This document shows, piece by piece, positions 9,790-61,440 of a DNA stretch of 64,000 nucleotides. Below the pieces are notes generated by a model that saw nothing but the letters and a program-made list of their open reading frames with translations, ran no database searches and had not been told where the DNA came from. This DNA is from Mobula hypostoma (taxonomy: Eukaryota), in the NCBI RefSeq assembly GCF_963921235.1, contig NC_086108.1, positions 18,166,001 to 18,230,000 on the forward strand. The letters are read 5' to 3'. Each line of letters begins with the position of its first letter. Position 1 is the stretch's first letter. Both the position numbers and the translations under genes were made by a program.

Positions 9790-9883
9790 TTATTATTGTT
9801 AAATAAAACAAATTTTCTGTTTAAATATTGACAGGTGAAATAGTTTCTTTCATCTAGTTATGGCCCAGTATTTTCATTCATTC

Positions 9884-10860
9884 AACACACACAAAATGTT
9901 GGAGGAACTCAACAGTCAGGCAGCATCCATGCAAAAAAACAGTCGACGTTTCGGGCCAAAACCCTTCCGCAGGACTGGAGAAAAAAAAGCTGATGAGTAG
10001 GCTTGAAAGGTGGGGTAGGGGAGAGAGAAACACCAGGTAATAGGTGAAACTTGGAGGGAGAGGGATGAAGCAAAGAGCTGGGAAATTGATTGGTGAAAGA
10101 GACCATGGAATAAAGAAAAAGGTGGGGCGGGGGGGGAGGAGAACCAGAGTGAGGCGGTCATGGACAGACATATCGGAATGGGAATGAGAAGTGGAATTAA
10201 ACTGGGTGGCCACTGGGAAATCCCGATCCTGCATTTTCTGGGGGACGGAGCATAGATGTTCCATCCACCAGAACAAACGGGACCTTCCACTTCCAATTCC
10301 CATTCTGATATGTCCATCCACGGCCTCCTCCACTGTCGTGATAAGGCCACACTTAGTTTGGAGGAACAAGACCTTGCATTCCGTTTGGGTAGCCTCCAAA
10401 CTGATGGCATGAACATCAATTTCTCAAACTATCAGTCATGCCTCACCACCCCCAAAAAAACACTCATTTCACCATTTTCCATCCCCTTTTCCCTCTCTCA
10501 TATTATCTCCTTGCACGCCTATTTCCTCCCTCTGGTGTTCCTTCCCACCCCCCCCCCCTTTTTCTTTCTTCCATGGCCTTCTGTCTCTTTCACCAATCAA
10601 CTTCCCAGCTCTTTGCTTCGTCCCCCCCCCTCCAAGTTTCACCTATCGCCTGGTGTTTCTCTCTCTCCCCTTCCCACCCGCCCCCCCACCACATTTCGAA
10701 TCTACTCCTCACCCTTTTTTCCTTCAGTCCTGCCAAAGGGTTTCAGCCCAAGACGTCGACTGTGCTTTTTCCTATAGATGCTGCCTGGCCTGGTGAGTTC
10801 CTCCAGCATTTGGTGTGTGTAGCTCAGATTTCCAGCATCTGCAGATTTTCTCTTGTTTGT
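9884..10860. mobile_element. Penelope-like element 3' ends in head-to-head fold-back arrangement
   Basis: Both arms encode the GIY-YIG C-terminal segment (PVATQFNSTSHSHSDMSVH on minus; NSHSDMSIHGLLHC..LEEQDLAFRLGSLQTDGMNINF on plus) followed by a pLTR with a decayed hammerhead motif. Confidence 0.85.
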
Positions 10861-12253
10861 GATATTTATTCACTCATTCATTCTTTCATTCATTGATCCA
10901 TTGTTTTGGTCAGTGGACTCATTTAACAATATAATTATTGCTCAGTAACATCATTCATCAGCCTTGATTATTGCTCAGGAATGTAATCCTCCAGATAATT
11001 ACTGATCATACTTTTAGTGAATAGCATAGTGTTTGTATTGATTACAGGGTGATTTCTTTCTGGGACTGATTATAGTCGGCAAGATCATTCATCACTTGGT
11101 TATTTGATGGTGGAATTATTTATCAATCTGTTTTTCAGTCTGCAGAGTAAGTTCAAGTTTAGACCATAAGACCAGAAGACAAAGAAGCAGAAGTCAGCCA
11201 TTGAGTCTGTTTTGCCATCTTATCATGAGCTGATCCATTCTCCCATTTAGTCCCACTCCCCTGCCTTCTCACCATAACTCTTGATGCCCTGGCTACTCAG
11301 ATACCTATCAATCTCTGCATTAATTACACCCAATGACTTCACCTCCACTGCTGCCCGTGGCAACAAATTCCATAGACTCACCATCCTCTGGCTAAAATAA
11401 TTTCTTCGCATCTCTGTTCTGAATGGGCGCCCTTCAATCCTTAAGTCCTGCCCTCTCGTACTAGACTCCCCCATCATGGGAAACAACTTTGCCATATCCA
11501 CTCTGTCCATGCCTTTCAACATTCGAAATGCTTCTATGAGGTCCCCCCTCAATATTCCAAATTCCAAGGAATACAGTCCAAGAGCGGACAAACGTTCCTC
11601 ATATGTTAACCCTCTCATTCCAGGAATCATTCTAGTGAATCTTCTCTGTACCTTCTCCAATGTCAGCACATCCTTTCTTAAATAAAGAGAACAAAACTGC
11701 CCACAGTACTCAAAGTGAGGTCTCACCAGCAAGTTATAGAGCCTCAACATCACATCCCTGCTCCTATACTCTATTCCTCTAGAAATGAATGACAAAATTG
11801 CATTCGCCTTCTTCGCCACTGACTCAGCCTGGAGGTTAACCTTAAGGGTATCCTGCACGAGGACTCCCAAGTCCCGTTGCATCTCAGAACTTTGAATTCA
11901 TTTAAATAATAGTCTGCCCGTTTATTTCTTCTGCTAAAGTGCATAACCATACACTTTCCAACATTGTATTTCATTTGCCACTTCTTTGCCCATTCTTCCA
12001 ATCTATCCAAGTCTCTCTGCAGACTCTGTTTCCTCAGCACTACCGGCCCCTCCACCTATCTTTGTATCATCAGCAAACTTAGCCACAAAGCCCTCTATTC
12101 CATAATCCAAATCGTTGATGTACAACGTAAAAAGAAGCGGCCCCAACACGGACCCCTGTGGAACACCACTGGTAACCGGCAGCCAACCAGAATAGGATCC
12201 CTTTATTCCCACTCTCTGTTTCCTGCCAATCAGCCAACGCTCTATCCATGTAT

Positions 12254-12583
12254 TGTGAGTGCATTGTGAGTGTTCCCTTGACAACAGCATCTGCAGATTA
12301 TTTTGTGTTTATGATTTGCTACTCAGCTGTGAAGCCTCTTCAAGGTATGCCTACCCTGAAGAAATTTAAATCCTCTCTTCCACGGGAGTTCAGTGAGACC
12401 CTCTCTCATTGCTCCCCCTCTGTGATCTCTGCCTCTCTCCGACTCTTCGCAACTACCAGCATTCTTCAAACCCTCCCCAAAGTTCTTCCTTCAGTCCTGA
12501 CGAAGGGTTTCGGCCCGAAACGTTGACTAATCTTTTCAACTGTTGCTGACTGACCTGCTGAGTTCCTCCAGCGCACTGCAAGT
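12254..12583 (+). mobile_element. 330-bp non-coding retrozyme-like / PLE pLTR-derived insertion with 15-bp TSD
   Basis: TSD GCTCTATCCATGTAT at 12239-12253 and 12584-12598; the empty site is present once in the sister CR1 at ~59883. Contains a hammerhead motif and is permuted relative to other pLTR copies. Confidence 0.8.
12493..12528 (+). ncRNA. Minimal type I hammerhead ribozyme motif, core intact
   Basis: AGTC-CTGACGA-A-GGGT-TTCG-GCCC-GAAA-C-GTT-GACT: helix I AGTC/GACT, CUGANGA box, stem II with UUCG loop, GAAA, loopless helix III, GUU triplet. Confidence 0.75.
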
Positions 12584-13054
12584 GCTCTATCCATGTATGT
12601 AACTATCCCATAATTCCATGGGCCTTATCTTGTTAAGTAGCCTCATGTGTGGCACCTTGTCAAAGGCCTTCTGAAAATCCAAATATACAACATCCACTGC
12701 ATCTCCCTTGTCTAGCCTACTGGTAATTTCCTCAAAAAATTGTAATAGGTTTGTCAGGCAGGATTTTCCTTTAAGGAAACCATGCTGAGTTCTGCCTATC
12801 TTGTCATATGCCTCCAGGTACTCTGTAACCTCATCCTTGACAATCGACTCCAACAACTTCCTAACCACCGATGTCAAGCTAACAGGTCTATAATTTCCTT
12901 TTTGCTTCCTTGCCCCCTTCTTATCATCATACAAATGTCATGAAAATTAACTTTTTGTAACAGCAATACAAGATATTATAAAGGTACATTAAAATAATCT
13001 TAATTTCACATGAAGTAGACATAAATTGCACAGCGAAATAAACGTAACAGTAGT

Positions 13055-13302
13055 GCAAACACAAGGAAATCTGCAGATGCTGGAAATTCAAGCAACACAC
13101 ACAAAAAATGCTGGTGAACGCAGCAGGCCAGGCAGCATCTATAGGAAGAGTCGACGTTTCAGGCCGTGACCCTTCGTCAGAACTAATTGAAAGAAGAGAT
13201 AGTAAGAGATTTGAAAGTGGGAGGGGGATGGGGAGATCCAAAATGATAGGAGAAGACAGGAGGGGGAGGCATGGAGCTAATAGCTGGAAAGTTGATTGGC
13301 AA
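13055..13302 (-). mobile_element. Penelope-like pLTR/3' fragment
   Basis: AAATCTGCAGATGCTGGAAATTCAAGCAACACACACAAAAAATGCTGG is the reverse complement of the pLTR end at 10800-10860. Confidence 0.8.
13149..13184 (-). ncRNA. Minimal type I hammerhead ribozyme motif, core intact
   Basis: Minus strand AGTT-CTGACGA-A-GGGT-CACG-GCCT-GAAA-C-GTC-GACT with canonical GUC triplet. Confidence 0.7.
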
Positions 13303-55351: not shown

Positions 55352-56555
55352 TAGCATCCGTGGAGGGAATTAAACAGTCGACATTTCGAGCCAAGGCCTT
55401 TCATTAGGACTGAAAAGGAAGGGTGAGGGAGCCAGAATGAGGAGGTGGGTGGGAGGGGGAGAGAAGTACACATGAGGAGGTGATATAGTAAATCCAAGTG
55501 AGGAGGAAGGGAGATGATTTGAGAAGATGGGAGGTAATAAATAGAAGAGGTTAAGGGCTGAAGAAGGAATCTGATTGGAGAGGGAGAGGAATAAAGGGGA
55601 GGAATTAGCGACCCCATCTGGGAGGGTGGAGGGGGAAGAAAAGGGATGAGAGAGCCACCAGAAAGAGGGAAAACAGAAAGGAAACAGTGGCATGAGTTTA
55701 CCAGAAGTTAGAGAAATCGATGTTCATGCCACCAGGTTGGAGATTACCCAAATGTAATTATAAGGTATTTCTCCTCAAACTTAGTTTGGCCTCATTGTGG
55801 TAGGAAATTCCTCTGCAACTTCCACCATCTCCAAACGGATTCCACCACCAGACACATCTTTCTCTTTGCACGGCTGAAAAAGCAGCGACAATCTCCCAAT
55901 GGTGACCCATTTCAATTGGACTTGCCATTTCCATACCGACACCTTTGTCCCCAGCCTCCTCTAGTGCCACAATGATGCCAAACACAGGTTGAAGAAGCAA
56001 CAGCTGTGAATTCCGTCAAGCTTGGGCCAGAGACCATGGACTACAGACCGCAGAGCACAGACTGTAGACCTTGGCCAGAGACCACAGATTTCCAACCTGA
56101 TGCCATGGACATCGATTTCTCTAACTCCTCTCTGTATTCCCCACTGTTTGTTTCCCATCATTCTGGTTTCCTCTCACCCTTTCTGTTCTGCTCAACTCCA
56201 CATCACCTCCCTCTGGTTCCTCGTCCCCTTCCCTTTCTCCCGTGCTCTCCTGTCCTCTCCTATTCTATTCCCTTCAGCCCTTTACAACTTCCACTTATCG
56301 CCTCCTGGCTTCTCACATCATCGCCATTCTCCGACTTGCACTCCTCCTCACCTGCTCTCACCCATTACCTGTCAGCTCGTGCTTCTTCTCTTCCCATAAC
56401 CTGATTATGGTTCCTGCTCCTGTCCTGATGAAGGGTTCAGCCTGAAATGTGGACTGTTTATTTCCCTCCATCCATGCTGCCTGACCTGCTGTGTTCCTCC
56501 AGCATTTAGTGTGTGTTACTCAAGATTTCCAGCATCTGCAGAATCCTTTTGTGTC
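55352..56555. mobile_element. Second head-to-head pair of PLE 3' ends
   Basis: Minus arm 55352-55800 and plus arm 55805-56555, each ending in a pLTR with a decayed hammerhead motif (55375-55412, 56420-56456). Confidence 0.75.
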
Positions 56556-57543: not shown

Positions 57544-57771
57544 CTTCAAAGGTTCTTGTTTCTCTACTGCCCTTACCATCTCAGGAAATTCCGATAAGAT
57601 CACAGGCAATAAAAGATTTTTCAATTTACTTTGATAATAAAAAAAGTGCTGGTATTGAAGTAATAGGTCATAGGTTTAAGGTGAGAGGGAAACGTTTTTT
57701 ACACAGTACAGTTAGTGCTTGGAAGAGCTAACAGAAGAGGTGCTGGAGGCAGGAACAGTAACGTCATTTAA

Positions 57772-58155
57772 GAAACACACACAACATGCTGGAGGATCTC
57801 GGCAGGTCGGGCAGCATCCGTGGAAACAAACAGTCCACGTTTCGGGCCGAGACCCTTTGTCAGGACTGAAGAGGGAGGGGGCAGGGGCCCTATAAAGAAG
57901 GTGGGGGGAAAGTGGGAAGGAGAAGGCTGGTAGGTGTCAGGTGAAAAACCGGTAAGGAAAAAGATAAGGGGGTGGGAGAGGGGAAGCAGGGAGGGGATAG
58001 ACAGGAAAGGTAAGAAGGAATAGGGGAAAGCACAATGGGTAGTAGAAGGAGGTGGAACCATGAGGGAGGTAGTAGGCAGCTGGAGAAGGGGGCAGAGCGA
58101 AGCTGGGATGGGGGAAGGGAGGGGGAGGGAATTACCAGAAGTTGGAGAATTCAGT
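57772..58155 (-). mobile_element. PLE pLTR/3' fragment with mutated hammerhead
   Basis: Minus strand CAGTCCTGACAAAGGGTCTCGGCCCGAAACGTGGACTG at 57831-57868. Confidence 0.8.
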
Positions 58156-58777: not shown

Positions 58778-61180
58778 AGACCATAAAACCATAAGACCAT
58801 AAGATAAAGGAGCAGAAGTCGGCCATTCGGTCCATCGAGTCTGCTCTGCCATTTTATCATGAGCTGATCCATTCTCCCATTTAGTCCCACTCCCCCGCCT
58901 TCTCACCATAACCTTTGATGCCCTGGCTTCTCAGATACCTATCAATCTTCGCCTTAAATACACCCAGTGACTTGGCCTCCACTGCTGCCTGTGGCAACAA
59001 ATTCCATAGATTCACCACCCTCTGACTAAAAAAAAATTCTTTGCATTTCTGTTCTGAATGAGCGCCCTTCAATCCTTAAGTCATGCCCCCTTGTACTAGA
59101 CTCCCCCATCATGGGAAACAACTTTGCCACATCCACTCTGTCCAGGCCCTTCAACATTCGGAATGTTTCTATGAGGTCTCCCCTCATTCTTCCAAACTCC
59201 AAGGAATACAGTACAAGAGCGGACAAACGTTCCTCATATGTTAACCTTCTTATTCCCGGAATCATTCTAGTGAATCTTCTCTGTACCCTCTCCAACGTCA
59301 GCACATCCTTTCTTAAATAAGGAGACCAAAACTGACTACAGTACTCTAAGTGAGGTCTCACCAGCGCCTTATAGAGCCTCAACATCACATCCCTGCTCCT
59401 ATACTCTATTCGTCAAGAAATGAATGCCAACATTGCATTCGCCTTCTTCACCACCAATTCAACCTGGAGGTTAACCTGAAGGGTATCCTGTACGAGGACT
59501 CCCAAGTCCCGTTGCATCTCAGAACTTTGAATTCTTTCCCAATTTAAATAATAGTCTGCCCGTTTATTTCTTCTGCCAAAGTGCATAACCATACACTTTC
59601 CAATATTTTATTTCATTTGCCACTTCTTTGCCCAGTCTTCCAATCTATCCAAGTCTCTCTGCAGACTCTCCGTTTCCTCAGCACTATCGGCCCCTCTACC
59701 TATCTTCGTATCGTCAGCAAACTTAGCCACAAAGCCATCTATTCCATAATCCAAATCGTTGATGTACAATTTAAAAAGAAGCGGCCCCAACACGGAACCC
59801 TGTGGAACACCACTGGTAACCGGTAGCCAACCAGAATAGGATCCCTTTATTCCCACTCTCTGTTTCCTGCCAATCAGCCAACGCTCTATCCACGTACGTA
59901 ACTTTCCTATAATTCCATGGGCTCTTATCTTGTTAAGTAGCCCCGTGTGGCACCTTCTCAAAGTCCTTCTGAAAATCCAAATATACAACATCCACTGCAT
60001 CTCCCTTGTCTAGCCTACTGGTAATTTCCTCAAAAAATTGTAATAGGTTTGTCAGGCAGGATTTTCCTTTAAGGAATCCATGCTGAGTTCTGCCTATCTT
60101 GTCATATGCCTCCAGGTACTCTAACCTCATCCTTGACAATCGACTCCAACAACTTCCCAACCACCGATGTCAAGCTAACAGGTCTATAATTTCCTTTTTG
60201 CTTCCTTGCTCCCTTCTTAAATAGCGGAGTGACATTTGCAATCTTCCAGTCCTCTGGAACCATGCCAGAATCTATCGACTTTTGAAAGATCATTGCTAAT
60301 GCCTCCGCAATCTCCACAGCTACTTCCTTCAGAACACGCGGGTGCATTCCATCTGGTCTGGGAGATTTATCTACCTCTACACTGTTCAGCTTCCTGAGTA
60401 CCTTCTCTGTCGTAATTGTGACTGCGCACACTTCTCTTCCCTGCCACCCTTGAGTGTCCGGTATACTGCTGATGTCTTCCTCAGTGAAGACTGATGCAAA
60501 ATACTTGTTCAGTTCCTCTGCCATCTCCTCATCTCCCATTACAATTTCTCCAGCATCATTTTCTATCGGTCCTATATCTACTCTCACCTGTCTTTTACTC
60601 TTTATATACTTGAAAAAGCTTTTAGTATCCTCTTTGATATTATTTGCTAGCTTCCTTTCATAGTTAATCTTTTCCCTCTTAATGATCTTCTTAGTTTCCT
60701 TTTGTAAGGTTTTAAAAACTTCCCAATCCTCTGTCTTCCCACTAATTTTTGCTTCCTTGTATGCCCTCTCCTTTGCTTTATCTTTGGCTTTGACTTCTCT
60801 TGTCAACCACGGTTGCATCCTTTTTCCATTTGAAAATTTCTTCTTTTTTGGAATATACCTGTCTTGCACCTTCCTCACTTCTCACATAAACTCCAGCCAC
60901 TGCTGCTCTGCCGTCTTTCCCGCCATTGTCCCTTTCCAGTCAACTTTGGCCAGTTCCTCTCTCATGCCACTGTAATTTCCTTTACTCCACTGAAATACCG
61001 ACACATCAGATTTCAGCTCCTCTTTTTCTAATTTCACAGTGAACTCAATCATGTTATGATCACTGTCTCCTAAGGGTTCCTTCACCTCAATCTCTCTAAT
61101 CACCTCTGGTTCATTACACAATACCCAATCTAGTACAGCCGATCCCCTAGTGGGCTCAACAACAAGCTGTTCTAAAAAAC
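58778..61180 (-). mobile_element. CR1 LINE family B, ORF2 pseudogene
   Basis: GDSDHNMIEF, 258-aa ORF 60102-60878, YLDFQK and FADDTK; (CTTATGGT)n tail. Confidence 0.95.
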
Positions 61181-61319
61181 CAGAAAGAAAGGGTTAGTCC
61201 CTTTTCCCTAGAGTTAACATCTATCCCTCTGACCCTTTCCTAGATATCTTCTACTGCTGTTATTTTACCTGCCTTTACTGTTTTCTGGCATTTTAACCTG
61301 CAGCACATATTTGGGATAA

Positions 61320-61440
61320 AACACAAAAAATACTGGAGGAACTCAGCTGGTCAGACAGCATCTCTGGAAATGAATAAACAGTCAATGTTTCAGGCTGAGA
61401 TCTTTCATCAGGACTGGGGAGAAAAGATGAGGTCAGACAT
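61320..61440 (-). mobile_element. PLE pLTR fragment with partly decayed hammerhead
   Basis: Minus strand CAGTC-CTGATGA-AAGATCTCAGCCT-GAAA-CATT-GACTG at 61379-61416. Confidence 0.7.

Follow-up and report, generated by a model that had tools for sequence, protein, structure and literature searches.

Penelope-like elements (PLEs) of the endonuclease-bearing (EN+) Neptune clade are described as having pLTRs, a 30-40 bp tail and a minimal hammerhead (PMC8557442; PMC4209133). Short internally deleted elements (SIDEs), reported for R2/R1 (PMC3414825) and for the CR1 element Persaeus (PMC6740152), join the 5' and 3' ends of an autonomous retroelement, keep its ribozyme and are mobilised in trans, and a template jump has been considered as their origin. 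They form rare, old, multi-copy families. Metazoan non-LTR retrozymes have units of ~300 nt with a type I hammerhead, long target-site duplications (TSDs), homology to PLE pLTRs and presumed mobilisation by PLEs (PMC7229834; bioRxiv 10.64898/2026.07.22.740005). Their defining features are tandem repeats, a hammerhead in each unit and circular RNA (PMC7229834), and they are reported to derive from local amplification of the terminal repeat (bioRxiv 10.64898/2026.07.22.740005). In vitro, the reverse transcriptase (RT) of the Anolis Poseidon element PAc uses uncleaved RNA, has two internal start sites and depends on the first 172 nt of its own ORF, and the hammerhead is dispensable for insertion (PMC11167929). 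Both the derivation of retrozymes from PLEs and the existence of non-autonomous PLEs have been published.

We analysed an insert of 330 nt (12254-12583) that lies inside a host LINE fragment in the window, a stretch of 64,000 nucleotides from Mobula hypostoma. The source of its whole sequence is a PLE that appears to belong to Neptune, and it shares with that clade the tandem and inverted structures, the two tail lengths, and a minimal hammerhead with an extra base before stem II and a palindromic, loopless stem III. It differs in that the ORF is gone after codon 34, there is one pLTR, and the cleavage base is mutated. As in SIDEs, the 5' and 3' ends of one autonomous element are joined, the ribozyme is kept and mobilisation would be in trans; in contrast to the SIDE families, this genome has dozens of independent junctions, mostly single-copy, and the parent is a PLE. 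Unit size, hammerhead type, long TSD, pLTR homology and presumed PLE mobilisation are those of non-LTR retrozymes, from which the insert differs in being a monomer with parent codons. It acts like a SIDE of a PLE and looks like raw material for a non-LTR retrozyme, while being neither tandem nor a family. To that extent an earlier sequence-only reading, which saw a PLE-derived, hammerhead-bearing, non-autonomous unit inserted by PLE machinery and resembling non-LTR retrozymes, is borne out. We consider it probable (about 0.68) that the insert is a PLE leader plus 34 codons joined to the hammerhead-bearing 3' end, likely through a stop and restart of the RT ~100 nt into the ORF, and that it is probably a dead monomer. 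The features of the locus are:

11163-12923, minus strand: host LINE fragment (CR1-type RT region), broken by the insert; self-BLAST match to 58788-60219 at 91-96%, with RVT_1 in the paralogue
12239-12253, plus strand: left TSD copy, 15 bp, GCTCTATCCATGTAT; the site is single-copy in the paralogue at 59883
12254-12261, plus strand: 8-nt repeat of the bases that open the element (TGTGAGTG), at its 5' junction, seen in the sequence; the upstream parent match stops at 12262
12262-12449, plus strand: 5' part of a Neptune-type PLE, with the 85-nt leader and the first 103 nt of the ORF; 174-178/188 identical to three full-length copies
12337-12362, plus strand: hairpin around the presumed start codon of the parent, inherited from it and present in full-length copies; z -3.45
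12347-12526, plus strand: chimeric 59-codon frame, of 34 parent N-terminal codons and then in-frame pLTR; no function implied
12449-12450, plus strand: deletion or jump junction, from ATG+103 to a point 47 nt before the hammerhead core; not GT-AG, and no microhomology
12450-12583, plus strand: 3' end (pLTR) of the same PLE subfamily, stopping at the short-tail site as placed by the 3'-end peaks; 123-129/134 identical to three full-length parents
12493-12528, plus strand: minimal type I hammerhead, recognised in the sequence, with the architecture given in PMC4209133
12584-12598, plus strand: right TSD copy, 15 bp, GCTCTATCCATGTAT

The coordinates and the perfect TSD at both ends agree with the sequence-only reading. 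GCTCTATCCATGTAT has two perfect copies (12239-12253 and 12584-12598) and no others in the window, and its 15 bp exceed the 4 bp above which a TSD is in keeping with a non-LTR retrozyme. A paralogous copy of the host element has one target-site copy at 59883-59897, 13/15 identical to GCTCTATCCATGTAT, and matches the flanks of the insert at 285/303 and 289/301 positions (94-96%). The site at ~59883 had been taken for an empty site; it does hold a single target-site copy, and it is a paralogue of the host element rather than an empty allele. The ORF of the paralogue matches RVT_1 (E 4e-13), and from its motifs we take the host LINE to be CR1. Together with the last AT of the TSD, the 8-nt duplication TGTGAGTG makes a 10-nt repeat at the 5' junction, likely produced by slippage plus microhomology joining. 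Besides this duplication there is a terminal redundancy of 10 nt (7/10 identical), as had been observed, and the locus holds one unit (312 nt) plus 10 nt, with a total length of 1.03 units. Fragments of a more diverged, related PLE family, covering pLTRs and endonuclease ends, lie elsewhere in the window (9866-10154, 10400-10860, 13056-13300, 55500-56550, 57756-57872 and 61317-61425) and are ~75-83% identical to the insert's hammerhead region. The pLTRs at 10795-10860 and 56490-56550 run on into the downstream half that the sequence-only reading had described for them.

A search of the insert against its own genome (3.48 Gb) gave 80 matches, from the best 40 of 3743 candidates. Among the matches listed, many copies cover the first ~190 nt and then extend for kilobases, and the last ~130 nt are the end of the same parent element. 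The parent unit measures ~3.4-3.5 kb between hammerheads and contains an open stretch of 963 aa beginning at the ATG within the hairpin. Its ORF encodes an RT (RVT_1) followed by GIY-YIG, between pLTRs; the GIY-YIG hit is weak, and both hits are below the curated Pfam cut-offs. By eye, a Cys-rich linker with a CxxxCxxC stretch lies between RT and EN in the translation. Such a linker is a feature of Neptune and Nematis (PMC8557442); in this translated sequence it points to Neptune, although it does not separate the two. Upstream of the presumed ATG the parent frame frequently stays open across the leader, without a Met (L046, L040, L034), and in some subfamilies across the hammerhead as well. 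The true start may be non-canonical or farther upstream.

Each base of the insert maps to this coding parent or to the 8-nt duplication of the parent's sequence. The insert had been thought non-coding and free of PLE remnants, which is incorrect: the ATG at 12347 opens the parent ORF, and the first 34 codons match the parent N-terminus at 31/34 residues (E 1e-17). The coding content is these 34 parent codons within the 59-codon frame, without RT or EN. As read from the sequence, the insert is the front and back ends of a coding PLE (leader and 34 codons, then the last 134 nt) with the middle missing. The permuted order of its halves had been interpreted as the sign of a circle. Full-length tandem copies of the parent show the same order, and what had looked like the downstream half at the start is just the leader, with the pLTR at the end, the arrangement of every copy without an upstream pLTR.

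The same evidence bears on the proposal of a distinct retrozyme family. If the insert belonged to an established and expressed family of non-LTR retrozymes, with a sequence of its own, this would explain its unit of 312 nt, the type I hammerhead, the long TSD and a GC content below 50%, all of which resemble metazoan retrozymes (PMC7229834). We regard such a family as very improbable, given that both halves are the ends of one coding Neptune PLE subfamily. The exact junction occurs once in the genome (0 mismatches), and a search for two exact ATG anchors 224-424 nt apart found no tandem array of such units. The locus has one hammerhead, minimal and mutated, where a retrozyme has at least two consecutive hammerhead-bearing units.

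The hammerhead consists of a 4-bp stem I, the core CUGACGA, an extra A, stem II, GAAA and a loopless palindromic ACGU stem III. The motif lies exactly where it had been placed, and is of type I in minimal form; it cannot be called intact, as it had been, because the cleavage base at 12524 is U (GUU) where the subfamily parents have C (GUC), and an Rfam scan of the window gave five weak hits and no hammerhead at E<=1. C is also the base in most of the depth of four public sequencing runs. GUU cleaves less well than GUC. Folding of the hammerhead alone, as a monomer, did not yield the active form. In published work, single minimal hammerheads gave no cleavage and dimers gave weak cleavage (PMC4209133). 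As the locus lacks a second unit and its one minimal hammerhead is mutated, it would release neither monomer nor circle; thus, the insert is probably a dead monomer, a dead-end by-product. The hairpin at 12337-12362 folds as had been proposed (z = -3.45, 0/200 shuffles equally stable), with the parent-ORF ATG at 12347 inside it, and the fold of the whole insert has a z of -2.26 (2/100 shuffles equally stable).

Splicing was rejected as the origin of the insert junction, which is not GT-AG. The fit to GT-AG among the junction rows is 1/45 (L043); in that copy (L043:1936-2180) the junction runs from ATG+236 to just before hammerhead stem I. Several other junctions fall 2-5 nt before the hammerhead core. 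In Drosophila Penelope, an intron ends at the position just before stem I (PMC4209133). Contigs assembled from public runs have loose ends at 12449 and 12450 that lead into the parent ORF and the parent 3' UTR. Among the contigs listed, none spans the junction and no pile-up of starts or ends was seen, features that contigs would be unable to reveal in any case.

Allowing one mismatch, the junction search returned five matches, of which one is locus L002 and three are chance non-PLE sites. L002 and a further locus, L003, have the insert's exact 3' breakpoint and the G preceding it, and break at ATG+95 and ATG+78, respectively (ATG+103 in the insert). The family would thus comprise at most three copies, if both are kin. 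The base preceding this 3' breakpoint is T in 589 of 624 matches and non-T in 35, with G only in these three loci. Of 30 non-T sites viewed, one is a plain truncation at the insert's 3' breakpoint position, and no plain truncation with a G there was seen. The shared breakpoint and G fit common descent from one mini master and count against a de novo jump. The insert could accordingly have been copied from a circular or multimeric mini RNA that already existed, within a small clonal lineage with L002 and L003; it would then be a proto-retrozyme mobilised in trans. The three 5' breakpoints lie at similar CTCT..G motifs and are possible slippage derivatives. We consider such a lineage unlikely: the exact insert junction is unique, no private SNP common to the insert, L002 and L003 was seen by eye, and the inverted arm of L002, within the same 13-bp TSD, keeps the parental sequence across the break. 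Within that one TSD, L002 also carries 122 nt of captured non-PLE DNA (L002:1277-1398), which separates the inverted arm from the mini unit. A check for a cap-derived G found G at the junction in 15/45 rows against a 17% background (nominal p 0.006; rows not independent).

Our census covered every one of the 100 sites that match a 29-nt anchor at the ATG exactly. The insert itself is not among them, the anchor is blind to breaks before ATG+26, and 30/100 sites were read only to ~+1500; loci were classed with a custom alignment script. The break falls less than 250 nt from the ATG in 54 copies and at 250-1400 nt in 14 (two of which resume after an indel), and 32 run beyond 1400 nt. With duplicates collapsed, 50 events below 250 nt compare with 8 at 250-1400 (p ~2e-31 vs a uniform model). 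The short copies rejoin the element within 15 nt in 43/50 well-aligned cases, a count from which four diverged ones are excluded. In four insertions the element passes straight into target DNA, at ATG+29, +78/79 (twice) and ~+96 (L160, L107, L145, L139), with a TSD evident by eye in L107 and L139, and junctions fall at the same positions in L138, L003, L097, L002 and L063. Across copies, junctions have microhomology of 3 nt or less, or short insertions. A gapped-pattern search identified 25 minis with 80-200 nt between the anchors and 11 with 201-400 nt, and their junctions are widely different. Gutted copies make up about half of the ATG-bearing copies but are a small number next to the 3' ends of this one subfamily, which run to hundreds.

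The clustering of breaks near the ATG, the rejoining, and the direct ends at the same positions together point to re-initiation by the RT. Measured from the hammerhead core (n=99), 3' ends lie at +85-104 in 30 copies, at +120-134 in 31 and elsewhere in 17, and 21 run on; the two peaks are ~35 nt apart, as in a Neptune derivative with a minimal-hammerhead pLTR and an optional tail of 30-40 nt. They resemble the two internal RT start sites of Anolis Poseidon, and were counted in favour of re-initiation, as was its dependence on the ORF start; unlike the parent here, PAc belongs to another clade, and as far as the available text of that report goes, re-initiation yielding mini units is not described (PMC11167929). 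The inverted arm is parental across the break in 5/49 junction sites (L002, L084, L095, L099, L130), so these junctions likely arose during insertion. In eleven insertions with an inverted arm (L049, L070, L078, L084, L110, L114, L155, L158, L159, L169, L170), the two arms end at different tail sites, the short one in one arm and the long one in the other. Gutting near the ORF start is likely a common accident in this genome, now and then giving small re-copied families.

The insertion of a full-length PLE followed by removal of ~3.1 kb through DNA repair would leave the single TSD pair that flanks both ends, and microhomology-mediated deletions of Penelope copies are on record (PMC3846280). 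The insert junction has no microhomology, however, the pile-up of breakpoints in the first 180 nt of the ORF is not obviously expected from repair, and the same junction is repeated inside single insertions. We therefore judge a repair deletion improbable.

Recurrence is seen among the sister minis. A junction that joins ATG+118 to a point 63 nt ahead of the hammerhead occurs at six dispersed subfamily-A loci (L114, L169, L170, L205, L206 and L210; G000 C9, C21, C66, C12 twice and C67) with different ends and unrelated flanks. A private SNP is present in 4/4 loci covering the position, vs 63 sites with the common base, and no master of this mini was found. It is a small re-mobilised SIDE-like family, and a better retrozyme candidate than the window insert; propagation as a family, as in SIDEs, is seen for this junction, and the insert's own exact junction is single-copy. 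A seventh locus (L209) combines the six-locus junction with the 3' end of another subfamily, which indicates that junctions can recur and weakens the case for a clonal RNA. A second recurrent junction is found at two loci that are 97-98% identical, L167/L069 (G000 C68:1.88 Mb) and L168/L061 (C40:116.9 Mb). In L167, which has a 14-bp TSD, a unit of ~267 nt lies between two intact hammerhead cores; the tail of L168 is longer, so L168 would need a circle or another master.

These re-mobilised sisters favour a clonal mini RNA, as do junctions repeated head-to-tail in 4/49 sites and in the inverted arm at two loci, and 5' ends enriched near one unit length (10/64, p 0.008). Two intact hammerhead cores surround one unit in 2/49 sister sites (L048, L069). 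The tandem-repeated junctions and the recurrence make circular or multimeric templates plausible for some sister minis and possible for the insert, so far as the sequences indicate. The length of the insert, 1.03 units, is also expected from one round on a circle, which counts against re-initiation. On the other side, three of the ten one-unit 5' ends belong to long copies, so this position may be a natural stop of the parent or the start of its RNA, and no unit-length tandem was found (0 matches to two exact ATG anchors 224-424 nt apart, an exact pattern without an in-range positive control). Tandem repeats of leader and ORF start that lack a hammerhead also occur, of 161 nt x ~2.5 (L103/L104, C5:27.55 Mb) and 43 nt x ~3 (L151, C64:0.1 Mb), showing that a ribozyme is not required for reiteration.

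We return to RT stop and restart as the preferred origin of the insert. The endonuclease would cut the target with a 15-nt stagger, and the RT would prime at the short-tail site of an uncleaved tandem (or circular) parent RNA. It would copy 134 nt, through the hammerhead, halt at the edge of a U-run and re-initiate at ATG+103; on tandem or circular RNA this restart would be a back-jump of ~310 nt and not a 3-kb leap. The RT would then copy 188 nt, slip by ~10 nt and join the target. The jump may date from this insertion event or from a short-lived master that immediately preceded it.

The pattern of ORF-start breakpoints is apparently undescribed. No description of clustered ORF-start breakpoints in PLE minis, or of their match to alternative initiation sites, was found in the literature searched, which included few subscription papers. 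The words 'deletion', 'deleted', 'ORF' and 'template' are absent from the main text of the retrozyme preprint (bioRxiv 10.64898/2026.07.22.740005), whose supplementary family lists (one chondrichthyan) may hold related units. The insert locus is probably an ordinary dead by-product, and the interest is in the surrounding pattern, which bears on where PLEs start reverse transcription and on the origin of non-LTR retrozymes from PLEs. The positions that emerge from the census are testable in the existing in vitro PLE assay (~ATG+28, +78, +95, +118 and +160), and the two-ribozyme units L069 and L048 and the six-locus mini family are candidates for circle tests. Tentatively, and with some doubt, we suggest that the PLE RT routinely re-initiates in the first ~180 nt of the ORF, mass-producing hammerhead minis of 150-500 nt, of which those with two ribozymes would be excised, circularised and re-copied into small families. 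If this is true, the genome shows retrozymes being born, and vertebrate retrozyme monomers should keep the parent leader and first codons.
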